This document shows, one piece after another, positions 8,847-64,000 of a DNA stretch of 64,000 nucleotides. Every line of letters begins with the position of its first letter. Position 1 is the stretch's first letter. The position numbers and the translations under genes are program-made. The notes under the pieces were generated by a model that was not told the DNA's origin, did no database searches, and worked only from the letters and a program-made list of their open reading frames with translations. Source of the DNA: Blasia pusilla (taxonomy: Eukaryota); the NCBI GenBank assembly GCA_050084515.1, contig CM114271.1, positions 46,128,001 through 46,192,000 of the forward strand. The letters are read 5' to 3'.

Positions 8847-9179
8847 CGTGACTACAGTAGGACTCTCCGGCGCGGGTATCGGTGGTTGCTATGGTGCAAC
8901 CCCGTCTCGAACAAAAACACTCGGCCAACTGCTAACTCTGATCTCCTCCATGTGTAGTGGCCGGAACCACGCTCGATGCTTTGGCTATCATCTCTTGGCG
9001 TACCTGCAAAATATCCCAAGAAGTCCAAGGGTGTCTCTCCCGATCTCCCTAGGTGTGTAGATCTCCTTGGGTCTCGCCCCCAGCCACTGGCTCCACCGTC
9101 TCGGTAGGCATTGGGTCACCAACGCAACCGTTGTGATCTATCACGATCTCATATGGCGCAGCTCAACCACTCCCAAGTA

Positions 9180-9980
9180 GAGGATCCATGTCAAGCAGTT
9201 CATGTCCATTTCCTGACCCAAGATATGGCGTCGTGATGCCTCTGACATTGACGGTACTGTCGTCACTCCTGTGGGAAATCCCATCGCTTTCTCTCTCTTT
9301 TTAGCGTTGGGCTCCACCAACCTCTGAACCTCGTCATCCCAAACCAAGCCAGGACCGGCCTCCTTGTACAAATGGGAGGGGTGCTCCACTCTCTCATACG
9401 CCGTCTGTAACACCACATGGGGCACCAAGTTGATCCACCATAGACGCGGGCGATAGGATCTAGAACCTACACTCGCCGCATCCAAGAACACTATTGGGCC
9501 CATCCAGGCAAGCACCTGATGAGCACTCATCACCACCCGTGACCTGGAGTCTTCTAGGATCGGCACATTCTCCACAATGTAGGCTGGAGAACGAGACTGG
9601 TGCTCTTGCAACTGCCGTAAGACCCTCAACATCTCCCAAAAAAACCTGGACCAAGTGTTAGCCAATCCATTGTCTCGTCCAGCACTCGATTGGCCTTGAC
9701 AAGGCCAACCGGAAATGACCAAATCAATGGTCCCTACCCGCTCTAAGTCATGCGCCCCCAACAACGAAATATCCCTCGGTAGGGGACTCTAGTACCCCTG
9801 TACCGCGGACGCAGACAATAAATAGGGAAAACGTAGGCATAATTGCACCACATGTTGTAGTGAGACGCGCCTCGCAACATTATCACTCCCCACATACAGG
9901 TACTGTTGCACTCGCACTCCTACCTGCAAAACAGCAGCTAACATGGTGCTAATCCCTCCAAAGAGATCTAACACTCGAAT
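9180..9980 (-). pseudogene. DNMT3-like C5 cytosine methyltransferase domain, copy A
   Basis: VLDLFGGIS, GWPCQGQS, YIVENVP, YRPRLWWIN, EKAMGFPTGVT, ILGQEMD; ORFs 9789-10328 and 9141-9764 are in frame, split by one TAG. Confidence 0.92.
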
Positions 9981-20500: not shown

Positions 20501-20798
20501 CAGTTTTTGGCTAACCTGAAACACAGCACATCCATCAGCAGAAGGAAGCACTGGAAAACTGAAAAAGAAGCATGAATTCGCCTTCCATCTGACTGCCTGC
20601 ACCGAAATTCTTCTCCCCGGATACGACTCTGCAGTCGCCTTCGGACTCGCAACCAGGCCCTGCACCCTAAATTGCAGCAACGCTCTACATCTATCAAAAC
20701 GAAACCCCACAAGCCATCGAGGGAGAAAGAAATGTACCGGTGCAGAACGGCATACGCTTCCACTGGAATCTCCCAATCATCATCCAAGCTTCCAGCAC
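17510..20798 (-). CDS. Choline/ethanolamine kinase; exons approx 20798-20738, 20515-20233, 19791-19670, 19480-19285, 19054-18937, 18404-18357, 18101-18001, 17620-17510; start codon not located
   Basis: [37 protein letters not shown] (Brenner motif), [41 protein letters not shown] junctions with consistent phases. Confidence 0.9.
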
Positions 20799-21256
20799 CT
20801 GCTCCAGCCACAATCACCGTCGAGTCAGTCAACCACGCGAATTACCATTCCTCACTGCGAATTCGATTCACACAAGTCTGCGAACCCCATTGGCCTCCTC
20901 CAGACGGCGCGGAGCCAACAATTCCACTCACTCGGAGCTTCGTGGATGTCATACCTAGTGGAACAGCGCGCAACGCCAGGTCGTCCATATACGAGCACAA
21001 CTCCATAATTCACCCTCTTCCCTCCCCTCGAAACCAATAACAGATTAACCACCACCTGCACTCTTCTGCTCCGTTCCAGACTCGTCCTTCTCCTGCTCCT
21101 GCTCCTTTTCCTTTTCCTTGTCCTGCTTCTGTTGCTGCTACTGCCGACTTAGGCCAGCGAGACGGAGACGCTGTGGGCTCTCTCTCTCTCTCTCCAGAGA
21201 ATCCTGTCTAGCGAATTATCTCTGCATAAATCTCTCTCGGATCCTCCTCTCTAGCG

Positions 21257-27965: not shown

Positions 27966-30900
27966 ATGGATTTTGAACTGAGGCAAGCGAAGGAGAAATG
28001 GGAGCGAGAGCAGAGAGAGAAGAAGGAGAAGGCCAGGGTACGAGCGGAGAAGGAGAAGAAAGCAAAGGAGGAAGCGGCCAAACGGAAGGAGGCGATTGAA
28101 ACTGCGCAGATTGCGCGTCGTCTGGAAGAAGCTGGCGCCACCTTGGATGTGAGAATAGCCTGGGCACGAAGGAATGCATATCCCTTAAGATTACGGGAAG
28201 GATGTGTGAAAGGAACCAGTTGTTTCCCGAAAATTATTTGGACGCTATAATTCTTGGCTGTGTCCTTCGAAAGACGCGATGTGATCCAGCTTGCTCTAGA
28301 ATTAGACGGACATGGATGATGGGACGATCTAATTCATCTTGGGGAGAGTATTTAGGATTGTTTATTTTTTGTCCGGCAAACATACACGGGGTTTTGGCAG
28401 TGGAAATGTTCTCATTTCGAGTGGGACTTCAATGGTTTGTTTCGGTCCTGTTGCCTTGCCTTTTGTTGCCTTCACTATACTATCTGAGACGTTTGGCAGA
28501 GAGCAAATGTGAATTCCTGGAAGATGAATTTTAAGACTGCAGCGTACCTGCTGCCGTAATGAGATAGTTCCTGACACAACTGACCTCAATTGGTAGCGAG
28601 CTATGTTCAGTACTCGTATATGTTTGTACCCGAGAGACCGAAATTACTGTAAAATTGATTTGTTTATCTTCTGCTGCTTCAGCAGTGTTTGGTTTCAGAC
28701 TCTGCAGTCCATGATCGAGTTCTGAGGGGTGGGGTTGAGCTGTATGTTTGTTTGTTCCGTTGCGATATGTCCTCTTTTACTATTGAAAGGATGGGTTACG
28801 CCCATCGATTTGTTCCGTGGCGATATGTTCTCTATTACTACTGAAAGGATGGGTTACGCCCATCGATTACACTCTGGAGTTGTGTTATCCCTTGCGTCCA
28901 AAGAACGAATTGGATTACTGAAGCTTGAGCTAAGAATGGCCTAGAGTTTCTGTTAGCATTTCAATTTATTTGGAAGTCAATATCAACTTGGCGTGTGGAC
29001 ATGAAATGTGATTATGGTATAATGTCATTGTTCAGGCTCAGCAGCGGCAGGAGGAAGCTATGTGGTTGGGAGATGGCGTAGTCTTTGATAAGGAACTATT
29101 TGCAGTACGGGTTGAAGGTATTGGGGATAAGATTAGGCTGCCAGCATCTGCCTTTGCCGAGCTCCAATCTCAAAATGCAATTGATAAAGGGCCAATGTTT
29201 TTCAAGATATCTGCTTTATCCGGGGATAAAAGCGGGGATGCAACAAATGATTCATCAGGTAAGACCTCGTTAACTATGGTCTTTCTAATGTGATGAAAAT
29301 ACTCTCTGTTAGGTTCTGTCTCATGGTATGTATCTGGACTTTTGTTCAATTATATTTTTCTGGTCAAGTTCTGTCTGCACCCATAGGACCGAGTCTCCCA
29401 TCATATAGATAAGTGTCTCTGAAAATAAGCTCAAGTTCTGATTGGTAATCTTTTTGATTGTTTGTTCTCTTGTTCTCTCCTTGATGCCATTTCTTTGCTA
29501 AGGTTAGTATTTTGTATCTCCTGGTCTGCTCATCTATCAAATGATTCATTAGTTGGTTGTAGGTCCTCCTAAGATGTAGAAAGGTGACAGGATTGAATGT
29601 TGCCGAACTCAGTTTGTCAATGGTATGATGTTAGTTCAGATTTTTTTCAAAAAGTTTCAATGGGGGAAGGGGTTGGAAACTTCGCATATTACCAGCGCAT
29701 CAGTTTCCTGTAGAATTTTGCGAGCTAATGCATGGAGGAGTGTATAATCTTGCACTTATATTCTGTCTTTCAGCAGGGGACGATGCTATGGAAACAGATC
29801 TGCAAGAACCAAAGTCCACACATTCAGGGGTTCTAGAGTTTACCGCTCGGGAAGGTGAAGTGGAGATGCCACCCCATGTGTGGGACAATACTGGGCTTTC
29901 TGAAGTTCCGTTAGCTGGCCGGACTAAAGTTAATGTTTGCTATGTGAGGCTACCCAAAGGGACTTATGCGAAGCTTCGCCCAGAGAATGCAGATTTTGTG
30001 GACGTCCAAAATCATAAGGCAGTTCTTGAGACTAAGTTAAGACAGCATGCGACTCTGTCAGTAGGTGATCTCCTCACTGTCCAGCATGGAGGTGTAGATT
30101 ATGGTTTGAGAGTGATGGAACTCAAACCAGCCTCAAGTGTTTCTGTGCTCGAGACGGACTTGGAAGCAGACATAGTTAGATCTGTTGATGAAAGTGAGGT
30201 TGGAACTTCAGCACATAGGAGACTACTTCCTCTTGAACTTGAGAAGGTTCAAAAAGACCAAGTATCTGAAGGAGAGTACAGATACTACAAATTTACCATA
30301 GACGAAGCCCTAGGAAAATCAATTACTGCAGGCGAATTGAGTGTCTTGGTTCACTTGGATGTTGAAGATTCTCGGGGTAGTACTGATGCAGACATTTATG
30401 TTGGGGCCCACCCTTTGGCGTTCCCAACCCAACACAACCACGAATGGTCGTCACATGATAAAGGTTCAAAGGTTATTGTTTTGTCTTCTGGTCGACCAGT
30501 TGGTGCTGGGTCTTACAGCATTGGAGTACATGGATTTGCGGGTACCACAAAGTTCCAGCTACTTGTGGATGTAAAACGCTCTGTGGGTCAAGGATCTTCT
30601 GGCAACAAGGTTGGGAGTAGTTTAGTAGATAGAGGATCGGGGGTCACCACTTCTTCCGGATCAAGTTCTACGGAAGATGGGTTCGGGAAGTGTGACAATT
30701 GTGCCCAATTGGTACCTCTTAGAACATTTGCTTTGCATGAAGCATATTGTCGCAGGCATAATGTGGTATGTAAATATCCAAACTGTGGAATTGTCTTAAG
30801 AAGGGATGAGATGGAAAAGCATGAGCATTGCGAGAAGTGTGGACAAGCTTTCCAGAAAGAAGACTTGGCCAAGCATGTGAAGGTCTTTCATGAGCCTCTA

Positions 30901-31949
30901 CAATGCACTTGTGGAGTGGTACTAGAGATGGAGAAAATGGTAAGTCTGGAATTCTTCAATCATTGTAAAAGAGTTTGTTTTGATACTAAGCACTGTGAGT
31001 GTCACTAGCTGTAAGATTTTGAATTTAGGCATCTTTTCTGTGTGGTTTTGGAGATCAATTAGAGACATTGTGGAGTTTGAAAGTTTGTTCCTATTGGTTT
31101 TGTAATGTTGTTGTGACATGATGTGCCTTTTTTTTTTCGTTATGTGTTATGATGTAAAATTAGCCACTGTCCTACCAACGTCTTGTTCCCTCAGAGATGT
31201 TGTCTATGAAGTCAAAACTAGAGGCCATGTCCATCTTATCTGGCTTGTCAATTCTTTTGATGTTCAGTGGTAAGTCTCATTTCAAGGTAGGTGGTCACAA
31301 TTTGAATCACAAGTTCCTGTGTAGCATGGTACTTAAAGTGAACTCTTTTATGCAGGTAACTCACAGGAGCACTGTTTGCCCTCATCGTCAAATCACCTGT
31401 CGATTCTGTGGAGATATGGTCCAAGCAGGCTCAGAAGCTGACAATGTAAGAGACCGCATGCGAGGTCTGACCCAACATGAGAGCTCCTGTGGTTCACGCA
31501 CTGCTCCTTGTGACACTTGTAGTCGTGCAATCATGCTTAAAGAAATGGATCTTCACATGGCTGCTGCGCATGGTGGTGCTTCTCAATCAGCAGAGGTTCC
31601 CACGTCTAATATTCCATCGTCAGGGTTACCAGTGCAGTTTAGGAATGATGGTGGAACTGTTCCTCCTTCCACACCAACTGTGCAGATTAGAAGTATTGAA
31701 TGCCCCATATGTAGTAAACAATTCCCAGGGAATGCAACTTGGCAACTTAATCAGCATATAGATTCAGAGCACTTGAGTTCCTCTGAAGAGACAGCGCCTA
31801 CACACTTAGATAATCCTGTGGTAGAAGCACCAGGGTATGATTTTCCTCCATCTACTCCAAGGAGAACTCTATCAGTAGCATGCCCAATTTGTGGGATGGC
31901 AGTTCACAGTGAGCGTGATTTGAGCTCTCACATTGATATGGTTCATTAA
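27966..31949 (+). CDS. UFD1-family protein with C-terminal TRAF-type/C2H2 zinc fingers; exons 27966-28148, 29036-29258, 29774-30939, 31356-31949
   Basis: MDFELRQAKEKWERE start, GDKIRLPASAF, THSGVLEFTAREG, HKAVLETKLRQHATLSVGD (UFD1), Cys/His fingers; splice phases consistent. Confidence 0.9.
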
Positions 31950-41968: not shown

Positions 41969-44900
41969 TCAGACTTTCTGTCTCTTGGTGGATGGGCACT
42001 CCTGTACAGCCGAACTTCTATTCTCCGATGATTGTCGCACCAGGGATGAACTTGATAGTCGCCTTGCATTGTGCTTTATGGTAAATAACAAGTCCGAAAC
42101 GACCCAGGGAAAACTTAACAAATGAATTCTACTCTTGCTAACTTCTGAGAATTCTAGTGCACAGCCATAATAGTCTTGGTGATACGTGATGAAGTACCAA
42201 GCTGATGCCTTCGCTGCCTCGTCTGATTCCGACATGCCTCGCTTGTGGAACCAGCTTTTGGCCTCCTTTTGAAGAGCCTCAAAAGCCAACCGAACTTTTG
42301 GTTGGACATCATGCTGGCGTCTAACAAATAGTTCAGACAATGATAGAACATGACCACCTAGGATTTCTGCTTCATCTCGAATTCCATAATGGTTCATCAG
42401 CTGAATGAGCCTGACGTCATACAATTTCTTCTGGCGAAGGCCATTGTCAATGTGTTTCTCAAATCCTGGGACCAACAAGTCTTTGTCGCAAAATCTTCCA
42501 CCATCTGCAAAAGTGGAGTTGATGGACGAGTCTCCATCGATTGCTGCTTTCACAGAACGATACAGCCTTCCAAGTATTCCGTAGGCCACATATGTTGCCT
42601 TATGATCTTTCTCCATGAAGTCAGGATACTCCTTGGGCCGAAGTGCCATGGATATAACTGCAGGAACGCCCGTCTTTGGGAAGTCAACTGCCATGGAGGC
42701 AAGATGAGCCAACTCTAGGCACTTTGCATTACGAGCCCTTTCCGGCTCTCTGTCAGCATGCACAACGTGTGCATTTGCAATGACTCCCAAGTTATCATTC
42801 ACCATATAGTCTACGAAGAACTCTTGTATCTCCTGCACACAGAGGAACCAAATTGCTTCATTATCACAACCTTGTCATGCTATACCAAAGCTCATTTTCT
42901 TCCCTCTCCACCCCTATTCACCTTTTAACATAGTGATGCACATTATAAATCAGCGAGACACCCATTCTAGTTGAGTTCATGATCATTGACTAAATTTTCC
43001 CATCACCTGCAAAACTTTCATACTTTTCACCTCCAGAAACCAGATTTGACAGTACTCCACTTTCAAGGTTACCAATTCATCTATGGCTTATGAACAAGCA
43101 TTTTCACTTTTCCCAATAGGGATGGGAGACTTCATACCCATAAAATGCAAGATCCTATATAAGTTCTTGATCATTGCCTCACTGCACTTTCATTTTCATC
43201 ATATCCAACAACCAGATCGGACCGCACCACACAATGAAGGTAAAAGACTAGTGTAGGATTTGTGAAACTCCTGGCATAAGATATAACGAGATCATTGCGT
43301 CTGAGAGTGAATGGAGAGAGATCATCAATGCCATACCTCAACTGTCACAGGATGCTCCAGAGTCCTAGTTGGGGCAGGGGTATAATCCATAGGAGAATCT
43401 ACGCATGGTGGAATCAAAGACTCCTCCCAGCTCACAAGATAAAGATCTCCATCCAAATCGCTTCCAGAGCACTCATTTGGGTGGGGTCTGTATACGAGAC
43501 AGGGAAGCAAACTCTTCAGATACATTGGAGCAGAATGGGAAATACCAAACAAGGGCCATCATTTGAAATAGGTGGTGGACGTTTCCATTACACGTCCATA
43601 GACGGAGCAGTCCATGTCTCTAAAATGTGAGTCGGACAACCTCAACGGCCCTGGCAGACCATGAATCTTGGTTCTTTAAAGTAATGCTAGACAAGTCATA
43701 ATTGCCACCTCATCAGCTGCTATGTGATTACCTATGAGCTATACAGGAAACAGCATTTGACCAAAGTTCATGCATACCTTGGACCAATTTGAGGAAAAAC
43801 AATACAGTCCACCATGTGCTGTAGCTGGGGGACATCAACGCCTTGCAAAACTCTGACATCCCCTGGATGTAGGCATGGATTTTTTGCCACAAAAACTTTC
43901 TGTGTCACAACAGACGCCATGCCCTTGTCCTCCATCTGGTTTCCATGATCGTCGGTCAACTCGCCAAATTTTGAATCCATGGAAATCTTGATATATACTT
44001 CTCCATACGTCAAAGATTTAGTCTCATCCAGACAGCCCATGAGCAACCTTCCTTTCCCCACAAATATCTTGGCCTTGGTCTTTAGTTCGTTTAGTTGAGC
44101 ATCTTTGAACACACATAACAGCCGCTTCAGGAGGGGTTCTGTCTTAGGGCTGTACCCAACCTGAAGCATTTGCAGTGCAAATGAACTGGATCTTGTCTCC
44201 CTGAGAAGTTTCATTGCAAGAGTGTCATCTTCTAGCACTCTTTCCAACTTCGAAATCATTTGATTTTGCAGATTCATGAAAGCGGAATCTTTCACACCAA
44301 GAGTGGATAGTAGGCTTATGACCTGTCGATTAAGAAAGCACGGCAATATATGCGTCCACTCGAGAACCTCTAGGCCCATGTGAGGAGAGTCGAACTTATG
44401 CATACTAGGTCTTAAATATAGCTTGAATGAAGAAGAAGCATGAGGATCCACTGCAACCACCCCTTTATAACCACCATAACGGATTTGGAAGGCAGAGGGC
44501 ACAACTCCAAGTGGCAACCCACAAGCAGCTGATATAGTACGGGCAAAACCTGCAGAAATCTTCCCAATACCATCTGAGAAACAGTAGGTCTTGCCACATG
44601 TTCTGACAGTAATGTCTGGGATCTTTTTCACTTGGAGGGGGAGAACTTTCCCAGTCTCAGTCGATGAGGAGAAGCACTGGCCCATACGCGCTGCACATTT
44701 TGCCACATTGCGTATTTGGGAAAAGTCTCCCATGTCACATCTTATAGAATCTCCAGTGATCTCAGGTTTGTCTGGGCCCCCTAACACTTCAGCAAACATC
44801 CATAACTGGCCTTCCCTAAGCTGGCTCGCTGAAAATGCTAAGAAATCATACTTCTTGTTGCCAATGAAGATGCCCTCTCTCAAAACTTCTTTGATCCTCT

Positions 44901-46630
44901 TGTATATATGAGAACGTCGTGTATCCATCTCTGATGTAAGAGCAGAACTCGTAAGAGGTCCAAAGTTCTCATCAACAAAATTGACTCGAAGAAAGTTACT
45001 GGTATATTGCTCATACTTCCTGACCATTCGGTTGGAGGTTTCTACCTCAGGCCCCATACAGTACACCTTTGTGGGTGTCACCACAAGTCGATGAATCCAT
45101 GCCCTTCCTTTTCCCAACTTATGCAAATTTGGTAACGGTATTTTGAGAGACTTGATGTCATCAAATTTCGCTTTCAACAGCTTCCATGGCTCATAGGAGA
45201 CATCCTCGTGAGATGCAAGAAGCTTCATTGCCAGCTTTCCGGATGAAGTATCTGAACTTACCTGCCTGAAAAATTTGTCATCTAAAGTGGGACCACTGAG
45301 CTTCCCACGTTGGATAAGATTGTTGATCATGTACAAGATATCGAAAGGGATCCTAAAATTGTCAGGATTCACCATGGGCACAACAATCTGTTCAGCACTA
45401 TAAGAGCTCCCTCTCAGGATATGAAATTTTTTTGGGACGGAGTCAAACATTCTTGTTGAACCCAGGACCTGATTAAGGATCATAGTTTGAAATGTACCTG
45501 GGGACTCTGTTTCTATCATGTACACAAAAGACTGCCCGATTACATTGAAAGGAGTGAAGTCTGTGGTTCGAACCCATGCACCTTGCCAGTTTTCTTCACT
45601 ATATCTGCACTTGTTAGTCATGTATCTCTTCATCAAATCAGTGTAGGGATCTCCTTGGCGAAATGGTTCTCTTCGTCGACAATACAAGTATGGTGGACTT
45701 TGCTTAACCTGCACAGTGACGCAACGGTAATATGGAAACTGACAATTTCACAAATGTTTAGACCCAAGTAGCTGCAGCAGAGTATTCTGTTTAATAATTA
45801 TCAAAGTTCTGTATTTTTTGCTTTTTCATGTAATTAAGAACCATCTGAGAGTTCAGATCACGCCTTAAATCAAAGACAGGAATCTGAAAGCCAAAGAAAA
45901 CAAATTTAATCGTGTGACATAACAGATAGTACTACTTCTTTGTGTACATATTTGCCTAGACTGATCAACAGCCCTCTTTTAAAGAAAAAGGTCAGCATAA
46001 CCCCACATCCAAACTTTGATGTTTGAAAATGCATCAATAAAGAGTTGATTGAGAGCGATATAAGTGAATGTTCCAGGGAGTTTCTGAACGTACCTGTAAT
46101 AAGAAGCCTGTCATTTTATCTCTTGTCTCTGTGGCCACCAACTGAGATATTTCACTGAAGTGAAACTCCAATTTGTACTCTGTCAAAAGCATATTTTTGA
46201 ACTTCAAATGAAGGTCGAAAGTCCGCTTCTCCAAGCTGACTTCCAGTGTCACAGAACCATCATAATTCCACAAGGACGACATGCAGTCTTTAGATGTCAG
46301 ACATCCTATAGACAATGTGCAGTGGTTGAAGACGTAAGTTGTAGGTGTTGAGAGATGCTGCACAATTCCTCGCTCAAGAACAGTCAATTTCAGCTCTCGA
46401 TTATACAGCACAAGCTTCCCTTCACTAGAGAGCTTCACTGCTGTCATCACTGTCTCCTTCTCCTTGAAATGAACAAACCCAAAACCCTTGGATCTTGCCG
46501 AATCATGATGCAGAACTATCTTGCAAGATTCAATCTGACCCTCTCCGAGCACTTCTTCCAGATATTCATGAAGATCATCCTCCTCCACAACCTGAGGAAT
46601 ATTTAAAATCCGAACTGCCGTGTGGCACAT
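41969..46630 (-). CDS. RDR: RNA-dependent RNA polymerase, RDR1/RDR2 type (~1160 aa); exons 46630-46094, 45708-43778, 43487-43337, 42832-41969
   Basis: N-terminal RRM (SKGFGFVHF), AARMGQCFSSS, FSDGIGKIS, FQIRYGGYKG, KNPCLHPGD, catalytic CSGSDLDGD, AVDFPKTG; exons sum to 3483 nt in frame. Confidence 0.95.
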
Positions 46631-49481
46631 GTTAGTTCAGCTCACTGTTAGAAAAGTGTTGAACATTGACTACAGGCCTTTACAAGAGTGTACCCTTTGC
46701 TTCATTAGATATGCATTGCTACGCCTGCATGTTGGTAGCAAGTATGACCTCCCTAGTGCATTAAATTGGTAAAGAATGTGCTTCACCTCCGTTGAGTGAA
46801 GCCATCTCAGGTGTTGCTCTGTCAAATTCAAGCCGGCTTGATATTCGAGGTGCTCATGGACATCTCCCAAGTGCTTTTCTTCTCTCCTATCAAAGACCCA
46901 TGAGGAAATCTCAAGCTTTTGGCCCCCTAGTAATCAAAATTGTAATTCAAAAGTTGTGTTTGATAGTCCAAAGACACAAGCAGTATAAAATGTTGAAAAT
47001 GGTAATATTTAGTTTAGTCATGCCCTAAAACTAGTTAGTTGGATACTGACTTAGTTAGCTTGACACTAACTTAGCAGGATACTAACATAGTTTGCTAAAT
47101 ACAACTCAGAACTACTATATCTTTTAGGGTAAACTCGAATTAGGATTAGCCACCATCATGTACTTAGGGTCTGTATATCTCAAGGTCAGAAATCCCCTCT
47201 GTTCTGTATATATAAACTCTCCTTATAAGATCATTCTACAGCTTGCACAGCTTTTAGCGAGAACTCCTGAGGCTCTTGGTGTGTCCTGCAGCACTTGCCC
47301 TGCTGCAGAGTGACCGCGGAGAAAAAGGAGAGCTTTGTGTATGTTAGTGGGCCTCACTGGAAGGTCGGTCGTTTTTGTTCAGCTAGCTGATGGATCAACT
47401 GATGAATACTTTAAGATGAAGAGGCTGGTGCTGAAAGTAGACAGTGCACATGGACGAATCCTTCAAGGTGTAAGTTGAAATTTCTTAAGTCTAGCATCCA
47501 CAGGAATGGGAGCACATAGACATTCCCAGTCCCCATTCATTGGATTACCTATGCTGGATGTAAAAAACACTTGAAGAAGTCTCTTGATCAGTACCACAAG
47601 TTTCATTCTAGTGATATGAAATGATCCACCGCAAGAAAAGACAAACTACCAAAATCAACAGACCCACAGATAGAATTATCAAGCGGTTACGGTCTGGAAT
47701 CTTGCGAAATGAATGCAGCTGAGTTGAATTGGATCGCCTGAAGTCAGTCCTACCTATGTCAGAATGACTTCTGAACTCGCCTCCAGAAAGCAGAGAATCA
47801 ATTCTCTTCAAAAGGCCTATCCCACATTTACAAAAGAACAAGGGATAGACCCAATTGTGAAAAGTGAGGCAAACAAACAGAAACTCTGAAAACAATGGTT
47901 AAACTTGATTCACAAGAAACATTCTCTTCCGACTGAAAAAGACTCGTACATACACACACCCAAAGGCCACGCCCCACTTTTGTAGATTCCTCAAATAGAT
48001 GTTAGAAAAAAGCAGCTCTCAAAATATGCCACAACATCTATGCACTTCAGCACCTGTGAATCAGATCCGTCAGGCAGAACAAAGGTGATACCCACTAGAG
48101 TATGGTTTTGAGTTTAAGAAGCCAACAGACGAATGGACAATGCTCTTATAAAAGCTACCAGTACTGATCCATTGTTCCCAACAGTGAACTACAGAATCAA
48201 GAGAGAAACCCAACCAAAGAGTGCGCACTTCACATCAATCTATCGAGCTGAGGTAATCAAGAACAGCACAAGGACGTAAGACTCACACGATACGAAACCA
48301 ATTGATGTCCCGTTTTGCTCCCAGTCGACGAAGAAAGCTGCTGGAAGACACCCAACCCACAAACAACCATGAGCAACGGACGGAGATTGCAGAAGGATAT
48401 CCGGAAGCAGAGAAGGGAAGAAACGCACAGGACATGTGCATTGAAGTCAATGAAACGAAACCGAGCACCAAAAACCTGAAACGACTCACTTCTACACCAC
48501 AAGTTTTGTTGAGGTCATGCTCACAAACAAGGAACCACAGCACACTAGTTCGAAGCTTCCCCAATCAAACGAAACCTATGGATACGTAGTGCAAGCAGAA
48601 ACGCAGAAGCAGTGGAGCTAAGGCGAGAGCTTAGTAGACTTGCAGCGTCCAACGTCAGTAGGAAGGATTGTGATGCACGATGAAATGTAGCTTCTGTTTG
48701 ATGAGCAGATGGACAATTCACGTCGCTGCCTTTCACTGGGGAGACGAGGGGGAAAAGTAACCCCAAAGAAGGAACCCCTACCCAGCTCAGACTCAGAATG
48801 CAGACACTCAGTCAGCTACCATGGCTCTCTGATGCCATTCCGGTTACCTCAATCAACTTGGGCACTAGCCTCCTCCCCTCCTCCCCTTATCCTCCTCAAT
48901 TGTAGAAACCTGAGAGGATGATATCCACAAGACGATTGACGTCCTTCTAAGCTCCTTTCCACTGGCAGAAAACTCCTGATCCAAGAATTTCGAGGCAACA
49001 AGAAGAATTCCCATCCGAAAGGAAAAGCCAACAGTTGGGCGATCATACCATTCTGTGAAATGCGAAATGAACAGAGCAGATAAAGCAAGCCCATCTTGAT
49101 CATACAAGCAAGGCATTGAAACATGCGGTCACTGCAGGTGGTTGGGGACGAGCTGGCTACATGAATGAGGCCAAAGACGAGCATTCCCTATGATTGATGT
49201 CCTGGCGATTCCCTCGTCAATCGGCGAGAGTTCTTAGACTCTCCCACTCGAACAGCGGATGAGTCAATGGAGTCCCACTGATCATCGATCCCTGCAAACG
49301 AGAATAGTTCATCAGAGGCTTCTGTGCTTACAAACGCAATTGTCAGGTTTGCAATCGTTTCCTCCTCACCACAATGCATTTCACGAGCCTTCCCTCCCTC
49401 CAAATTGAATCCCAATCACGAAAAGAATCTCTCTATATCTCTCACCCTCTCCTAGCACCGTCCAAGCAGGGTTTTACGTGT

Positions 49482-54791: not shown

Positions 54792-55205
54792 ATGATCCTC
54801 TTGGGGAGGTGCGGTAAGAGGAGAGGAAGAGAGGAAGAGAGGAGAGAGGAGAGAGGAAACTACCTTCAACCGAAATAGAGACTTTTTTTAAGAGAGTTTC
54901 CGTTGGGTTGAAGAGAGGAAAATTTTTTGTGAATTTGTTTGCACTTTTTTGTTCAGTTATTAATCAGTCCCACAGTTTTTTTTTCCTCTTCCATATTTTG
55001 GCAACCCCTCTGAGTCCGACGAGTTGCAAATTGCACAAAATTTAGAAAACTGAAAAATCAGTGGAATCATAAGTGTGGAACCAATCACTTTTTCTATCCA
55101 AGGTCTGGAAAAAATCTATCATTTGCCCCGGGCTGAATAGAGTTCAAGCTCAAAGTGAAGGTTGAGGAAAAATAAAAGTACAATCTAAAACCTCATTTTG
55201 CATCC

Positions 55206-58200
55206 TCAAAGTGGTTTGTTTAAAATACTTCGGACTTCTTTGAGGGACTGAATTGGTTGGTGGATTCCTACTCCTACCTCCGACTCTCTTAAAACTACCA
55301 GCAACACATAGTACATGAACTTACAAGGGAAATACCTTTTGCCACTTGTCTCTCTTTGGACAAAGTCATCACATGAACATGTGGGAAAGCAACAGATGTG
55401 CACCACATACACCCCTGTGACACTTGAATTTACAGTGTTGTTCCTGACCCAATACATCCTTCCTATTCCATTGCCACTCAAGACATCTTTCGTGGCGATG
55501 ATCTCCATTTTTGCCTCCCGAGCTTATGCAATTCGCTTTGCTCTCTCCACCGTTGGCCTACACATTCTGTTTCTCTTCACCCCATTTCTAGACTCAAACA
55601 GGAATAATGGATTGAGATCATCCACCTTCTCCGGGTACATGTTGGCATTAATCTTGGGTTGAATACGAAATGCGAAGGTCTCTGTAATGCGAACATGCTC
55701 TGAACTTCCCCCGTCTATGAGTGTGAAACCGGCACTTGTAGGACTGTCCAATTCGTCTTAAGTGCAGTTCGTACCTACGGCGATGGGCCAAATCGTGGGG
55801 GTATTCCCGGGAGCTCCAATGGCAGCCGGATAAGACTTCCGGAAAGCGCAAGATTCATTTGGGCCGAAGAAGTACTTCAATTGATCCCCGGTCCTCGTGA
55901 AACGATCAAAGGTTTTGAGTCCCCAAAACCCAGGCAGTGGTCGTCCAGTCCTTGTACAGTACTTATTTAGGAAAGTGCCGCATGCTCTCCTAATGCCATC
56001 AGATCCTGCCCTGCATGTGGGTCCACGTCTTGGGTTGCTCCGAGATATATGCCACCATTTTAGGTTGCAATCCACCTCCATAATTGGAATCCCATATTGT
56101 TGAACCACCCCAATGACAGGATGTTGCAAACTTCCAGCAACGGAGGGCTTTTGAAATAAAACATTCACTGATTTTGGAGAAGTAACTCCATCATGGATTT
56201 GGGACGGGTCCGGGATCCCCGAATACCTGGGCGGCGTTATTTCCTCATCCAAATCAATCACCGGATTTGTTCCTCGATGTTGCCTCTTCACCTGCCTGAA
56301 GTCAATATACTTATCTGGTCTCCACGAGTCTCGCTCGGACTGCTCTACCACCATCTGTATGGGATGTCTTGAAACCCGCCCATGAATATCCCCACCAATG
56401 TATACGTCTTGCTCGAGTGGAGTTCCAGCTACGCATCGATTGAAGGCTTCCACGTACATTTTTTCATCACCAGATCTCACAGCCGCCCTGACATAGAGCT
56501 CGTAGATCGACGGCCCCTTTCCTTTTGTTATGCCTTTTGTGAGAAAGATATGGGATGCTGCAGACTGTAGCTTTGCTCTTGCCTGGTCTTGTTGGCATGC
56601 CTCCACAAGTCGTTGGCATGCTTGTGACGACCTCCAAGAGGAATGAACACTTTCTGCTCCACTTGTGTTGAGGCAGAGGGCATTTTCATGAACGTTCAAT
56701 CCCTGCAACGACGGCAATGTTAGAAGGGAACGAAAATAGCTCAGGAGTCAAAGATATAAGCGACCTGTCGGAACCAGACAGGTTGCAGGCCCGAGGCATC
56801 CCATGAACGACTCTGTGACCCGTCGGGTCCCGACGTGTTGTAACCTTAAACCCACCTACTGCAACCCGTCGGAACCAGACGGGTTGCAAGGCCGAGGCAT
56901 CCCATGAATGACTCTGTGACCCATCGGGTCCCGACGGGTTGCACTCTCGGGCAACCCGTCGCATCCGAAAACTTGCTTGGTTTCTTGGGTTTGAAATCCA
57001 TATAGTTCCCACGCTTCTCACCCTGAGCTACAACTAAACAAACAATTCTCAGCGTGAGCTTGACAAGACAAAATAGTGAACTCACCTGCCGCATGAAGTT
57101 TCCCCATTGTCTCATACGTACAGTCCACCAACTCAACCAAGAGCGCAACTCTTTGTACTTCCCCTCAATGGCATGCTTCCTCCACCACCCATGAAGTTCT
57201 TCCTGGCATTCTATGGCCTGCTTCAAGGTTTTTCTGTCCTTGCAGCGTTGGAGTAGAGTGACATGCTCTGTCCTCTTATTCTCCTTGATGCAAGATTTGG
57301 TGTACGGGTCACGATCGTTGCCAATGGAAAGCATCCGACCTTTCCTCTCCGGTTGAACCTCTCCACCCAGAACACTTCTCGGATAGCAATCCACCCAGGT
57401 TGTGCATTGTCCGCCATGAACCCATAAATTTCCGGAGGTGGCCTTTTGTTTTCCTTCACCACCTCCAATAAGAGTAACCAAAGACATCTTCAAACCGCCA
57501 ACGTCTTTCCGCTTTACTTCACAGACATATATAGTTTTGAGTCCCTTCTCCACATGGTCATAAACGTGAGCACCCATCATCAACCATCCGTTCAGCACTC
57601 TGTAGCAAATATCAAAGCTTACCCAGCTCCCGTGAAGATCTTCCCCTTCCCTCATTCGATCTATAAGATCGAAGCCACTCGACGGACCTGTCGTTGACAT
57701 TTTGAAGACATAGGCCCTGGATCCCTCGCCTCCTTGGCCCATGAACTGCCATCTCTGAATGAATGGAAATCTGGAGTTGGCCTTGATTTTGGCAATGGCA
57801 TCCATTTCGTCCATCTTTCCATCCAGAACTCGTATTTGACGCAGAAAATTCCAGAAGCATTCAAGATCAGCGAGAAATGCGAGATTTTCCCAGAGTTGTT
57901 TCTCCTCAACCGCCGTGATCTCGCCCTGTGTAGGGATTCCAAGCAATTGTTCACAAATTTGTGATGCCGTTGTGAGCTTGATCACTCCGGGCTTTGAACC
58001 CGGAGAGTTTCTCAGAGACTCGGCTACTTTCTTCGCCACATCCTCCTTGATGTGTCTTTGAATTGCATCGGTCACAAGATGAGTGTGGGAGCCAACATGA
58101 ACTGCCAGCCTTGTGTACTCTGACGTGGAGCCCACGTCATGGACAATGAAAAATATGTATGCATGACACGCTCCAACGCAGAAGGGCGATGCCTGACAAT

Positions 58201-58861
58201 GAGGACATCGATGGCCTCCCGGCGGTATTGTGGCACCCACCTCGTATGGAGTTTCTGCATTCTTGGGGGGGAATTGCGACGTATTGACTCGCCCGTTGCG
58301 CTCTAGATACGGGCATGCTGGACTTCTACACTCCAAGGCTCCCACGCATTGGCGGCGGGAGACAATCCAAGGACCATCTGGAATGGAAGCACTGGTCCGT
58401 TGAAGCTTGCACCATCGATGACAATCAGACTTTCTGTCCATACCCTTCAGGCGTCCTCCATCTTTCTTTTGAGCAGGAGTAGCAAGTGGAGGCAACTCAA
58501 AAATGCAATTACCATCGTACGGCGGCAGCTTGTCGACAAGAATGTGCTTGAACATTTTCAAGGCCAGAGACGAAAGCAAACTATTGCCTGATACTCGCAA
58601 GAGGAACGAGTAGGCGAACAGAGGGGCCGAGTGGTGTCTGACTGATCCACTGAGGTTGATAACATCCGGAATCTCTTCGGGAAGAACAACATTGTTACGA
58701 GCGTGCGAAGTTGGAGTCGAAGCCGGATCTGCAGAGCTTGGAGTTGCAAACGTAGAGCTCGGAGCACTAGGAAATTCTAGACTTTCTACTTGGGAAACAG
58801 ACGAATTTAGGGCAGGCCGTAAACTCTGTATTGACCATTTGCTAGAGGTAGGAGATTCCAT
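55206..58861 (-). pseudogene. Mutator-like (MULE) transposase with N-terminal Cys/His (GCM/WRKY-like) domain and C-terminal SWIM finger; exons 58861-57086 and 56702-55206
   Basis: Acidic triad candidates WVSFD, GFMADNAQ..WIAIREVF (after a frameshift near 57470) and TSGAESVH; SWIM-like YVVHI...PTCSCDDF...PCKFMYYV; in-frame TAA at 55758 and 55524; GT-AG intron 57085-56703. Confidence 0.75.
56760..56976. repeat. Cluster of 27-bp palindromes in the transposase intron
   Basis: Five variants of GCAACCCGTCGGA-N-TCCGACGGGTTGC. Confidence 0.85.
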
Positions 58862-60127
58862 ACTTTACGGTCTGAGGTCACTGGCTAGACCGTCTCACCT
58901 ATTATGTCTTCCGTACCGTCCACCCTAACATCTTTGGATACAAAGATGGTTCCAATTTGGAGAAGAAATCGAACAGACAGAAGAAATTTTCATCCACTGC
59001 TATGAAAGATTCACGAGCTTGGGGTCGAATGATTTCTGATTGAGGAAGGGCCGCCAGATGACTGCCACAAGTGAGCTTAACATAATTATCCATTCCCAGA
59101 AATTTTGTACGGGAGGAGGGTGAGAATGAGAAAGAGAATCAGAATGAGAATGAGAATTTTTAATTTATAGTGAATAGGAAAACAGGTACTCCTGACAAAT
59201 TTTTAGTGACAAGATGAATTCGATGGGTGGATAGCTTGGCTCTTTTTGAATTTGATTGAAAAAAACTTCTATGAGTTTGCTCGACATACTCACTGGCCTG
59301 TCGGGGTGGTTTTGAGAGGCGAGAATGATCTGAATGCTGGTCAGGAAATTCAGTGCATAACGATCCAGGTTCCTGGGAAGACTGCAAAACTAAGGTCGGC
59401 ACTTTTATTCTTGAGTGCAGGTTCAGTGATTCATGCGGGTAAACTCATATTGGCTAAAGTAAAAAATAAGAAAATGGTAGAGAAAATAGGCACGGGGGTT
59501 GGTCAAATCAAAAACAATTTTTGTTTTACAACTTGAACACATTACCTTACTTTGAAACCAAAGCCATTTCTGACCTCTCGGTCCATTGGAAACTCGACCC
59601 TTTACTCTTTTCGTTTACTGCTTTTAACCTTTTTAGCACCAACTAATTCATTCAAGCGAGACTTCCGAGGGATACACTGGGCAAACCAATTCGCGTATAC
59701 GATGATGCCCGTAATGTGAAAGACTCTGAGGGAAGGACTGGCCAAGTATCCTACAAAAATACTCCCAAAAGCCAAAAGGATTAAAGGTATACAGAAATTC
59801 CGTTTGGGATATTCGCCCCGGTATTATGGTGAGCGTGGATTTAGCACTTTGCTTTATGTGAAAAAATTAATGACCTCTATTGCGACCGGGAGAACCCTAA
59901 ATCCTTACTAATCAAACGCTGCGTCGTTTCGGGCAAGAAATTAAGTAAAGTCGATTACCAAAAGTACTAGTTTTCAAAGCGAAAATGAGTGGATTCACCA
60001 CAAACAGAAAGAAAAGAACCTTTATACTAAACAATGGATCCAATTTTGTAAAAACACATTCAATTCTGTTGCAATGTGTTACCGGATTTGGGAAGCAGAG
60101 GGTTGCGAATCACACTTCATTTTGTTG

Positions 60128-60890
60128 GAACCCGTCGGAGTCCTGGTAACTCTAGAAGCTAACCGAAGCCTGCAACCCGTCGGCTTTGGACGGGTTGCAC
60201 GCTTCTGCCAAACATTGTCGAAGCGAACAACCCGTCGCTCTCTGACGAGTTGCTCGGATACCGCTCTTTCTTGTCCGAAGATGCCAGAGGCGTGCAAACC
60301 GTCTGTTCCCGACGAGTTCGCGGGTGCCTCACCTATTTGCCCAAAGACGGCGAGGCGTGCAACCCGTCGCCCTCCAACGGGTTGCGCAAGGGCCTCGCAA
60401 GTGTGCAGCCAGTCGGACTCCGACGACTTGTGCGGGAAGCCCGCGTTCTTAACCCTTCACGAGGGAAGCGTGTAACCCAACGGTCTCCGACGGATTTCCT
60501 GGGTACGTCCCGTTCCCGTCCCAAACACGGCGGAGGCGCGCAACATGTCGGTCTCCGACGGGTTGCGCGGGTACCTCGCGTTCTTTTCCGAAAACAACGG
60601 AGGCGCTCAACCCGTCAGTCTCCGACGGGTTGCTCGCGCACGTGGTGACGTACCCAGGATGCCGGAGGCGCGCAACCTGTCGGACTCTAATGGGTTGCCA
60701 TTTTTCACCTCCGGACTTCCGTAACCTCCGGCACGTCGCCGTCAAACGGACGACGGGTTGCTCGCGCACGTGGTGACGTACCCAGGATGGCGGAGGCGCG
60801 CAACCTGTCGAACTCCGACGTGTTGCCATTTTTCACCTCCGGACTTCCGTAACCTCCGGCACGTCGCCGTCGAACAGACGACGGGACCCA
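60128..60890. repeat. Cluster of about twelve 27-bp palindromes between the divergent genes
   Basis: Copies near 60172, 60226, 60294, 60359, 60404, 60472, 60540, 60607, 60672, 60800; TATAAATA at 60916 follows. Confidence 0.85.
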
Positions 60891-61017
60891 ACGGTCAGCC
60901 CAACGGCTAGAAAAGTATAAATAGGGCAGAAATCGCTCATTTCCGGTTTCTCATTTCGCGAACTCCATTCCTCACTCTCCCGCGCAGCAGCAGTTCAGAT
61001 ACGAAGGGGCGTTTCAC

Positions 61018-64000
61018 ATGGCGACACATCGCGAGTCGATACGAGGGAACGAGAGCGAGACGGTTCGACCGAACGAGAGCGAGACGGTTCGACTGAACGA
61101 TCGCGAGACGATTCGAGCTACCCATCAAGGCGATTCGAGCTACCCATCTCGACATCAGCAAGGCGATGATCAAGGGATTCATCGTGGACATAGGTGGAGG
61201 AATTTCGGAAAAATGACGAGGAAAAATCACAAGCCAACAAGTTCAGGAGCTTCACTCCGAAGTCCATTAGGACTCTGCGTCAAGATCTCCTGGGCCTCGT
61301 TCGCGAATGAAATTAGGCAGCAGGAAAGCGAGGAGCGGGAAAGGGAAGTGGAGATGCACAACTAGGTGCTTCTTGCAAGACGTGTTCAAGAGGCGCTCGA
61401 TAAACAGAACGCAGAGGCTGAGACGTCGCACGCCTTGAAGAAAAGGATCGCCGACGAAAAGAGAGAAAAAAAGCGTCTGGAGGCGTCGGTGAGGAGAGCA
61501 GAATTGGCTAAAGCGAGGAGGGAAAAAGCGATAGCCATTGACGATAGCCCATCCCGTCCAACCGAAAGTGTTGAGATGCGGGAAATGTCCCCCATGAAGT
61601 CCGGGGACACAATCAACATAGTGGAAATGCCAGAAGTTCAAATCGAGGACAACGAGGTCATGAGAACCGCCAGCGTGGAGATGGTGGACATTGCCAAAGA
61701 AGCCGGAGAGCGGTCCTTCTCGTCTCCAAGCCCGGCGGAAGACATCGACCTCTCTCGGATCGACGAGTTCCCAGTCGATTTGCCAGCTTGTGTCTCATAC
61801 AAGTTGGCTGGTCAAGAAACTGACCCCATCTTCAAGCGGGTAAGAGAGGATCTGGGTTTTATAAATTATGTGAATTGCAATTCATTGGGAATTCATTGTA
61901 GCTTATTGATCTTGTCCCGGTTCTGACAGGTGGTAAAGCAGATGGCAGTGATGGAGGGCCACAACGCCCCGAGGATTCCCCTCTGCCGATTGCACACAAT
62001 GGAATACGTCCGTGAAATTCAGTCCGACGAGGACATCGCAAAGCTTAAACAATCGGCGGCGACAGCATCTTACGTCGACAGCTTTCCTCCGTTCTATGTT
62101 CAGCCTTACGACGAGCATGGAACCCAAGCTCTGGTTACGGAGGAGGACTTGGAAAAGCTCGACACATTCTGTAGGATGCGAGACCAGGATTTCAGAAGGC
62201 AAGTAGAGGGCACGGAATTCAGCTGGATGAGGAATCTGCATTTCTTCATCTGGGATGGAAATCACAGGTTCATGGCGTGGACCAAGTTTGCGGAGGAGCG
62301 GCCCAACTCATTGGACGCACATTTTTGCGTGAAGGCAGTGGTCCTTCACCCATTCCCTCATCACATGGCGACGGTGGAGATGGCAATGCATGCCATGAAC
62401 ACGTGAGTATCTTCTTACTTTTACACTTACGCAACTCGTCAGACTCCGACGAGTTACTCGATTGATGAATGGGTTAGGTTTCTTTTTGCCGAAAGCAACA
62501 CGTCGGACTCCGACGAGTTGCTCGACTCGACGCTTTTTCAGGATGTTTTTTTAAGAATGCAACTCGTCGGACTCCGACGAGTTGTTTGATTGACCACAGA
62601 TTTAATTAGTTGTTGGCCCAAAGCAAACCGTCGGAGTCCGACGGGTTGCTCGACTCGCCGCCTTTTCAGGATGTATTTTGAAGAATGCAACTCGTCGGAC
62701 TCCGACGAGTTGTTCGACTGACCGCAGGTTTAGTATGGTTTTTGCCCAAAGCAACCCGTCGGAGTCAGACGGGTGGCTTGACTCGAAACTATTTTTGGCC
62801 GAAATCAACTCGTCGGAGTCCGATGGGTTGCATTCGGAAGTTGGTTCCCCAAATTTCACGTTAGTATGTTCAGTTGCACAACCCGTCGGAGTCCGACGGG
62901 TTGAAACCAGGCATTAGCAAATCTAAATGCAATCCGTCCGACTCCGACGGGTTGCATCATTTAGCTCGAACCTAGAATCCGACCTTGAGCTGTGACGACC
63001 CGTCGGAGTTCGACGGGTTGAAACCAGGCATTAGCAAATGTGAATGCAATCCGTCGGACTCTGACGGGTTGCATCATTTAGCTCAAACCTAGAATCCGAC
63101 CTTGAGCTGTGACGACCCGTCGGAGTCCGACGGGTTGCAGGAACCCATGTAATTTCCTGACGGGTTGAGTTTGGATGTGCAAGATTGTATCGGAGGGGAA
63201 TGTCACCCACCACTGGATCCAGGACTGCGATCGGGTGAGGAAGGTGCTTACGACGCACCCGGGAGAGTACAAGGGGTTCTTGGGCAATGCCCTTGTCAAT
63301 CAGATGCTTGCAAAGGGTGCTCAGATAAAGAAGAAAACTTGGGCAAATAAGTTTATTTTCCAAGATGCAGCCGTAACCATCCTTTTCTGGTCGAAGATAC
63401 AGGCCGCGAAGAAGAGCGTTGCATTGGAGCTGGAGCGGAGGGAGAAGGTATCTGCGTCTGAGCGCGCGAAATTCATCCAAGCTGCAGTATCTGCAGCAAC
63501 GAAATACACGGCGAGCAAGATGCAGCGATATATCAGCATTCTCAACCCCGAACTTGGTCCGGAGTTCTACAAGGAGATGAAGGCGATTATCAAGCGCCAG
63601 CGGAAAAGGGATGAAGATCCGCATGGTCGGATTGGGGAGAAAGTGTCCCTGGATCGCGTGCATCGGTTTGCGTTGTCCGGCATAAGCGAGTTTAGGAGGA
63701 TCCGACTGATGAAAATCAGTCTCGAGGGCCCAGAGGCCCAGAAGAGGGCGGCACACCATCCTCCAGGTGTGTCCGATCCAGTGATCTCCCAATGGCTACG
63801 CGAATGGTCGTTCTGGGACGCGTTGCGGGTTATCGGGAAGTCTGTGGTGGAGAGTCTACAAGCGGAGCTCAGAAGATTAGAGCCCATCTCGGATGAAGCA
63901 AACCTTGAAAGTTTTGGAGATTTTGAGGTTTGGCTCGACGACATCCGGGAGAAGCCAATGAAAAACCCAGGATTCAAGACAATGTTCAAGGTTTGCGTCC
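61018..64000 (+). pseudogene. Spliced gene with coiled-coil N-terminus and ParB/Srx-like motif; exons approx 61018-61839, 61930-62402, ~63183 to near window end; one in-frame TAG at 61363
   Basis: FFIWDGNHRFMAW; GT-AG intron 61840-61929; donor GTGAGT at 62403; stop-free frame IVSEGNVTHHWIQD... to the window end. Third-exon acceptor is unclear. Confidence 0.6.
62431..63138. repeat. Regular array of twelve 27-bp palindromes inside an intron
   Basis: First six start at 62431, 62495, 62559, 62623, 62687, 62751 (exact 64-bp period). Confidence 0.92.

Follow-up and report, generated by a model that had tools for sequence, protein, structure and literature searches.

DNA transposons that carry a ParB-like accessory gene beside the transposase have been described from algae. 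In the brown alga Ectocarpus, the 21.5-kb element Sola1-1_Ec32 has a Sola1 transposase and, on the opposite strand, a gene for a protein of about 1,100 amino acids with ParB-like and N4/N6 DNA methyltransferase domains, and it has been suggested that this accessory protein binds its own element and modifies it (PMC12477816). Plavaka, Mutator, and Zisupton elements of red algae with PAG2/PAG3 also encode a ParB-like accessory protein, located beside tandem inverted-repeat arrays, together with a PF01555 methylase in the same element; these elements account for a large share of the genome, and the cassette switches from one type of transposase to another, with Mutator among them in Chondrus (10.1101/2025.02.11.637652). 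Here, we describe a transposon family from the land plant Blasia pusilla, found in a stretch of 64,000 bp that is hereafter called the window and corresponds to positions 46128001-46192000 of contig CM114271.1 in a 390-Mb genome of 26 contigs (assembly GCA_050084515.1). One of its 2 genes encodes a transposase, and the other, here called the cargo gene, encodes a protein with a candidate ParB/Srx-like domain and a methyltransferase-like domain. By analogy with known systems, the cargo protein would recognize palindromes in its own element in a ParB-parS-like manner and aid expression or transposition, with the methyltransferase-like domain serving as a binding module; we place the probability of this reading at roughly 50%.

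Both divergent genes are located within a single DNA transposon that extends from window position 54806 to extended position 68573, 4.6 kb beyond the window end. The ends were placed by comparing the continuation of the window with other genomic copies, and extended positions carry the window numbering past 64000. The original prediction had proposed a Mutator-like transposase head-to-head with a ParB/Srx-like gene in one large element starting at 55206. The divergent genes were recovered (transposase on the minus strand from 59093 to 55206 with an intron at 57085-56703, cargo on the plus strand from 61213), as was the single large element, since extension past 64000 revealed both ends together with a 10-bp duplication that is perfect; the start had to be moved to 54806. 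The introns and start codons of both genes were placed from GT..AG signals and the continuity of the consensus reading frame. The features of the window copy are as follows.

54796..54805, plus strand: left copy of the target-site duplication, 10 bp, perfect
54806..54870, plus strand: left terminus, a purine-rich block
55002..55026, unstranded: single palindrome near the left end
55206..56702, minus strand: transposase exon 2, with the putative catalytic Glu (GAESVH), a middle region, and, at the C-terminus, a SWIM-like finger; interrupted by stops at 55760 and 55526
56703..57085, minus strand: transposase intron (putative, GT..AG), with 4 palindromes
57086..59093, minus strand: transposase exon 1 (putative start codon), with an N-terminal region rich in Cys and His, candidate catalytic Asp residues in SFDIC and MADNA, and an AFHW motif; one stop and nine frame-shifting indels
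59230..60030, unstranded: insertion of about 800 bp, absent from the 9 other copies compared; mitochondrial nad5-like fragment
60173..60825, unstranded: 10 palindromes in an array between the genes, on the upstream side of the cargo gene
61213..61839, plus strand: cargo exon 1 (putative start codon), encoding a charged N-terminus of low complexity; disrupted by a stop at 61363 and three 1-bp deletions
61930..62402, plus strand: cargo exon 2, candidate ParB/Srx-like domain with WDGNHR (GxxR motif) in IWDGNHRF; open
62403..63182, plus strand: cargo intron 2, in which 12 palindromes follow one another mostly at intervals of 51-66 bp; altered acceptor
63183..64000 and on to extended 64828, plus strand: cargo exon 3, starting with a putatively helical region of about 400 amino acids without a family match and continuing past the window with a linker and the N-terminal half of the methyltransferase-like domain, which includes LLIADLPSG and VPEWN; the part past the window has two stops, frameshifts, and a deletion of 378 bp
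extended 65367-65788, plus strand: cargo exon 4, C-terminal half of the β-class N6/N4 methyltransferase-like domain, cut off by a replaced segment
extended 68294-68573, beyond the window: right terminus
past the right end, contig position 46196573 (extended 68573): right copy of the target-site duplication, an identical 10-mer

The purine-rich block of the left end recurs in inverted orientation near the right end, with 38 of 40 positions identical and an offset of 17 bases, and only 7 of the outermost 12 bases are identical between the 2 ends. The terminal inverted repeat is thus short and asymmetric. Full-length copies measure 12.2 to 12.8 kb (about 12.4 kb). When 2 mispaired rows that arose from nested copies were set aside, 14 end pairs were available, 6 of which were flanked by perfect 9- to 10-bp duplications and 4 by duplications with 1 to 2 mismatches (one of them poly-A), and the remaining 4 had no duplication. 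A 22-mer from the left end had 1,233 exact matches in the genome and a 24-mer from the right end had 514, with no matches for the controls. Because the exact 22-mer was present in 29 of 37 sampled left ends, we estimate the total number of left ends at about 1,570. These results show that the element belongs to a family of cut-and-paste DNA transposons of about 12.4 kb with at least 1,233 left ends in the genome.

It was also noted that the copies cluster and nest in one another, both at about 8-11.5 Mb of the contig and at many of the sampled loci. A non-autonomous derivative of 429 bp with both termini (L122:34-462) adjoins a piece of exon 3 from another copy, and a far more diverged relative of the left arm (L119:34-1904) has 73% DNA identity and altered palindrome-like units. 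When Riccia proteins were searched against the genome, all 18 loci checked belonged to this same transposon family, and no separate family with a different palindrome emerged.

The transposase is about 1,170 amino acids long, and the candidate D, D, FHW, and E motifs represent the majority state across the copies, in an order that we take to be that of Mutator transposases. The SWIM-like finger scored below the cut-off in an intact transposase copy (E 0.034; 14.1 bits against 19.6), with the C-x-C..C-K-H residues visible. Target-site duplications of 8 to 11 bp and terminal inverted repeats ranging from none to hundreds of bp have been reported for Mutator elements (PMC6446971), and duplications of 9 to 10 bp were observed at 10 of the 14 end pairs. 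Motifs, finger, and duplication length together indicate that the transposase is very probably Mutator-like, as had been predicted, although its core gave no profile match. A transposase from another DDE superfamily, in an element otherwise as described, would explain why the core matched nothing in Pfam, NCBIfam, PHROGs, or the PDB sequences, and there is a precedent in the Bostrychia elements that were initially filed as Mutator and turned out to be Plavaka (10.1101/2025.02.11.637652). Since the duplication length, the SWIM-like finger, and the motif order all fit Mutator, and the termini do not start with CACTA-type letters, we consider such an origin distinctly improbable.

The linkage of the 2 genes, for which a genome-wide check had been suggested, was borne out in 3 samples of copies. 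A transposase was located head-to-head in all 9 copies chosen among the best stop-free ParB hits, and at least half of the ParB exon was located head-to-head in 17 of 20 copies chosen for long transposase frames, the other 3 having rearranged cargo. In a third sample, consisting of every fifth of the first 100 listed left ends (n = 20), both genes were present in 11 and the transposase with other pieces of the cargo in 3, whereas only transposase pieces were found within 10 kb in 3 and neither gene in 3, one of which was the 429-bp derivative. Both genes are open in the majority consensus of the copies.

The cargo gene has four exons on the plus strand and encodes a protein of about 1,210 amino acids that is collinear with the 1,207-amino acid Riccia protein P0044 (E 1.4e-82 in a small local set); exon 2 alone is 36% identical. 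The IWDGNHRF motif noted at the outset lies in exon 2, which spans exactly 61930-62402. GxxR (Box II) is the nucleotide-binding motif of ParB (PMC12704722), and the GNHR of the cargo fits this pattern, the G being invariant across 23 homologues and the R present in 19 of 22. In a structure comparison of exon 2 against 48,161 chains, all 10 chains with Z of at least 2 were of ParB/Srx type, the best being KorB (Z 4.5, root-mean-square deviation [rmsd] 3.6, 93 residues aligned). The matches included Atu1540, SspE, and BrxU, which we take to be of that type. The top 10 rows of a Foldseek search with the exon 2 model were likewise all of ParB/Srx type, and the Atlas lists a cluster in which ParB_N occurs in 11% of the members at 0.95. 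Pfam assigned no ParB family to exon 2 in the window copy or in 16 aligned members (DUF1015 was hit at E 0.021 in one copy), word-based searches with exons 2 and 4 against longer proteins gave no matches, and profile searches of PDB sequences with three family alignments gave nothing meaningful. The fold evidence for a ParB/Srx-like domain is thus weak and concordant, in line with the predicted reading.

That the cargo might continue past the window with a methylase or nuclease domain was correct for the former: the later exons match N6/N4 DNA methyltransferases, and no nuclease, SET, or 2-oxoglutarate (2OG) domain was detected in the cargo. The C-terminal domain matches phage methyltransferases and M.RsrI, and exon 4 matched PF01555 below the cut-off (E 1.4e-4). 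Since an intron splits the domain, the Riccia homologue P0045, which is 33% identical to cargo exon 4, was folded in its place. The P0045 model matched CcrM (Foldseek E 5.8e-12, Z 17.0, rmsd 3.0, 187 residues aligned) and has the permuted β-class fold with the motif order IV..X-I. The modelled homologue thereby shows the cargo C-terminus to be a β-class N6/N4 DNA methyltransferase-like domain. It was noted that UniRef labels the Riccia homologues P0042, P0044, P0045, and P0056 as 'Trimethylguanosine synthase', which is probably a mislabel of this domain.

Motif IV does not follow the canonical (D/N/S)-P-P-(Y/F/W) pattern. It reads DLPSG in the cargo and mostly D-[LMIFV]-P-[STEK]-G in the aligned rows, none of which (0 of 38, including liverwort and fern homologues) has an aromatic fourth residue, and DFPF was seen in 1 of 32 genomic copies. 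Because the missing aromatic residue has been modelled as stacking on the target base (PMC10406627), normal catalysis by this domain appears doubtful. An active writer is nevertheless conceivable, in which the cargo protein loads at the palindromes and deposits N4-methylcytosine (4mC) or N6-methyladenine (6mA) that blocks or overrides host silencing by 5-methylcytosine (5mC), with the Trp of the well-kept VPxWN just downstream of motif IV replacing the aromatic residue. The β-class fold is intact, several motif residues are retained (Asp and Pro of motif IV, Asp and Gly of motif I, and Lys of motif X), dN/dS (the ratio of replacement to silent substitution rates) is about 0.1, each palindrome contains several CG sites, and the same idea has been put forward for Ectocarpus Sola1-1 (PMC12477816). 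With motif I divergent as well as motif IV, and with CG decay in the palindromes not lowered, this alternative seems unlikely to us, and we favor a binding module on account of the missing aromatic residue.

The element contains arrays of a 25-bp palindrome with the consensus CAACYCGTCGGA-N-TCCGACGRGTTG. Allowing up to 6 mismatches, 27 sites were found in the window, all of which fall within 54806-64000, and the remaining 54.8 kb has none. Cargo intron 2 accounts for 12 of these sites, the intergenic region for 10, and the transposase intron for 4, and one further site is near the left end. The palindrome had been noted in the introns of both genes, which was correct for 4 and 12 sites and incomplete in that 10 are intergenic. 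The polished full element has 43 sites, compared with 0 to 1 in each of 20 shuffles, and perfect copies number 2,899 genome-wide (control 0). The consensus is identical in both subfamilies, and tandem duplication is evident within the arrays.

The palindromes could instead be transposase sites or structural hairpins, with the cargo acting elsewhere, for example in target choice or on host chromatin. All four units tested fold as stable single-strand hairpins (z -4.4 to -7.5), the transposase has a Cys/His-rich N-terminal region, the terminal repeats are short and asymmetric, and there is a unit at a distance of 200 bp from the left end. Against this, none of the 43 units is located in an exon and 40 are in introns or between the genes, away from the ends; the 429-bp derivative exists with both ends; and red-algal inverted-repeat arrays accompany a ParB-like gene despite a different transposase (10.1101/2025.02.11.637652). 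Moreover, covariation between the palindrome arms was seen at just 1 of 12 pairs, a result that fits protein recognition better than selection for hairpins. On balance, we find this explanation improbable.

To study selection, changes common to a diverged subfamily (up to six copies) were compared with singletons. For the former, dN/dS was 0.05 in the transposase core; within the cargo, it was 0.08 in the ParB exon, 0.09 and 0.12 in the 2 methyltransferase halves, and 0.19 in the middle region, whereas the singletons were near-neutral and rich in replacements. Fisher P values were 1.5e-6 for the ParB exon, 4.4e-6 and 0.004 for the methyltransferase halves, and 4.5e-14 for the transposase core; 8 of the 10 regions fell between 4.5e-14 and 0.009, and significance was not reached for the short Glu region or for SWIM. 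As judged from these substitutions, both cargo domains are shown to have been under purifying selection while the family spread, and the low dN/dS implies that the cargo mattered to the element during that time. A passive cargo as in Pack-MULEs, that is, a captured gene without a role for the element and palindromes that are a selfish minisatellite, would agree with the tandem duplication within the arrays and with the lack of intact copies in our sample. It is largely refuted by the purifying selection on all cargo domains, and the architecture common to diverged Riccia families and ferns and the fixed head-to-head layout also speak against it, so that we give it hardly any credence.

Transitions at CG and CHG positions amounted to 6% to 8%, compared with 1% to 3% at A/T, from which it follows that the host methylated the element copies. 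We also observed that silent divergence between subfamilies A and B was 0.09 to 0.10 in the main transposase regions and 0.18 to 0.56 in the cargo exons, which suggests that the 2 arms may have acquired different histories via recombination between subfamilies.

In the reading that we prefer, the accessory protein, probably as a dimer, would recognize the palindromes of its own element as ParB does parS, and the GxxR nucleotide-binding site would be used to load or spread along the element. The loaded protein would keep the element expressed or organized for transposition against host CG/CHG methylation, in a working mode like that of VANC in VANDAL elements or VirB in Shigella. The methyltransferase-like domain would most likely be a module that binds S-adenosylmethionine or DNA, with little or atypical activity. 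The fusion itself probably descends from a phage-type ParB-methyltransferase.

Several observations weigh against this reading. The exon 2 model is poor (predicted local distance difference test score of 52), none of its Foldseek matches reached an E value of 0.001, and its structural Z scores were all below 5. Sequence searches found no helix-turn-helix or dimerization domain in the cargo, and the palindrome binder could equally be the transposase. The higher identity of the palindromes (0.80) than of the spacers (0.58) speaks for the reading, but this comparison is partly circular, since the sites were found by their likeness to the consensus. No protection of palindrome CG sites from deamination was seen, with transitions at 6.2% compared with 6.5% to 7.7% in coding DNA. 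A second test of exon 4, in three other diverged loci, gave 10 replacement and 16 silent changes, one of which was a shared stop. Finally, none of 49 sampled copies was intact in all exons.

A broader and more speculative proposal, which we rate as doubtful, is that seed-free land plants (liverworts and ferns) carry a widespread, phage-borrowed transposon system in which a ParB-type nucleotide switch would load on parS-like palindromes of its own element together with a methyltransferase of a new active-site design (D-x-P-x-G and a conserved Trp) that would write 4mC/6mA or occlude cytosines and thereby defeat 5mC silencing. If true, this would represent a ParB-parS pair in a eukaryote, its 25-bp site being defined, and a further entry route of a prokaryotic amino-methyltransferase into land plants.

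The window copy is dead. Relative to the majority consensus, its transposase has 3 stops and 9 frame-shifting indels, and its cargo has 3 stops, 9 single-base deletions, and a changed splice acceptor at 63182, followed beyond the window by the 378-bp deletion and a replaced right arm; some of the single-base indels may be assembly errors. Decay by point stops, as originally noted, is seen in 4 in-frame stops within the window and describes only part of the damage, which also includes many 1- to 2-bp indels, the acceptor change, an insertion, a deletion, and the replaced arm. The nad5-like match in the insertion at 59230-60030 is weak (E 0.008); it was preferred over a plastid origin, which was dropped. 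The segment at extended 65789-68293, which replaces the normal 3' part of the element, has internal direct repeats.

Elsewhere in the window, the minus strand at 7141-9788 contains what is left of a retroelement, with domains for reverse transcriptase (PF00078, E 1.6e-15) and RNase H. A piece of a C5 cytosine methyltransferase (PF00145, E 2.2e-10) precedes these on that strand, at 9144-9788, and the whole resembles methyltransferase-carrying retrotransposons that are mentioned in the DAM-retrotransposon preprint. Apparent host genes encode a choline/ethanolamine kinase (20209-20841), a UFD1-like protein (29635-31946), and an RNA-dependent RNA polymerase (41972-46636).

A search of representative proteins identified 39 homologues of the cargo. 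The 30 that were looked up comprised 13 from Riccia sorocarpa, 1 from R. fluitans, 2 from Calypogeia fissa, 2 from Adiantum, and 12 without an organism name, and all 70 hits in a profile search (among 8,000 candidates scored) were from R. sorocarpa. No algal names occurred among these 30 homologues, 12 of them unnamed, or the 70 profile hits, and 2 metagenome scans for related loci found none. The same cargo architecture was seen in many diverged Riccia families and in ferns, and in Riccia, dozens of these genes carry the annotation 'hypothetical protein'.

The domains of the cargo can also be compared with those of proteins outside transposons. ParB-N6/N4-methyltransferase fusions of phages combine the same 2 domain types in one protein with a GxxR motif (PMC12704722), whereas the cargo gene contains introns, about 600 extra residues between the domains, and a motif IV without the aromatic residue. 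The nearest look-alikes of the methyltransferase-like domain were mostly phage clusters, and no donor was identified, the best phage tblastn match having an E value of 0.03 and 4% to 5% coverage. Marchantia DN4MT1 (10.1101/2021.02.12.428880) and rotifer N4CMT (PMC10406627) are likewise β-class amino-methyltransferases of prokaryotic type in eukaryotes, and N4CMT matched P0045 with a Z score of 15.4. However, these are host enzymes with SPPY, whereas the cargo has DLPS and a ParB-like domain and resides within a transposon. A 4mC writer of the DN4MT1 type was rejected for the cargo based on its motif IV (DLPS rather than TSPPY). VirB of Shigella is an antisilencer of ParB type that loads at specific sites (PMC10770331).

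VANC resembles the cargo protein as proposed here in being an accessory protein that acts on tandem motifs in the non-coding DNA of its element (PMC5735166), and VANDAL elements are listed as a Mutator group (PMC6446971). VANC is, however, a different protein for which hypomethylation was shown (PMC5735166), and nothing VANC-like was detected in the present element. In the red-algal elements, separate genes encode a fusion of ParB with a 2OG oxygenase and a fusion of the methylase with a SET domain (10.1101/2025.02.11.637652), whereas the 2 domains form one protein here. The layout of a ParB-like and a methyltransferase-like domain in an accessory gene opposite the transposase is shared with Sola1-1_Ec32, to which the present cargo is likened from its published description (PMC12477816).

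The accessible parts of PMC4738411, the Marchantia 4mC preprint, and the DAM-retrotransposon preprint do not describe such an element, and our literature search, the scope of which did not include Iyer et al. 2011, Repbase, or supplements such as Bostrychia Supplemental Table 6, found no Mutator-like ParB-methyltransferase transposon in land plants. The description of the gene pair as unusual in the original prediction therefore holds for the land-plant, Mutator-like version and not for the combination of domains, since accessory genes for ParB and N4/N6-methyltransferase are already known from algal transposons. Binding or modification of their own element by ParB-like accessory proteins of algal transposons was proposed in 2025 (PMC12477816; 10.1101/2025.02.11.637652), and the present family makes this proposal directly testable through about 43 sharply defined 25-bp palindromes per element, purifying selection on both domains, and liverwort and fern homologues. 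If the proposal holds true, the family would be a system for transposon anti-silencing or self-marking that is distinct from VANC and made from bacterial partition machinery, in more than 1,200 copies in one genome. The loss of the aromatic residue from motif IV, itself conserved, poses a clear question for enzymology. What the B. pusilla family adds to these systems is a version from a land plant that is Mutator-like and present in high copy number, in which the palindrome is defined and a non-canonical catalytic motif is conserved.

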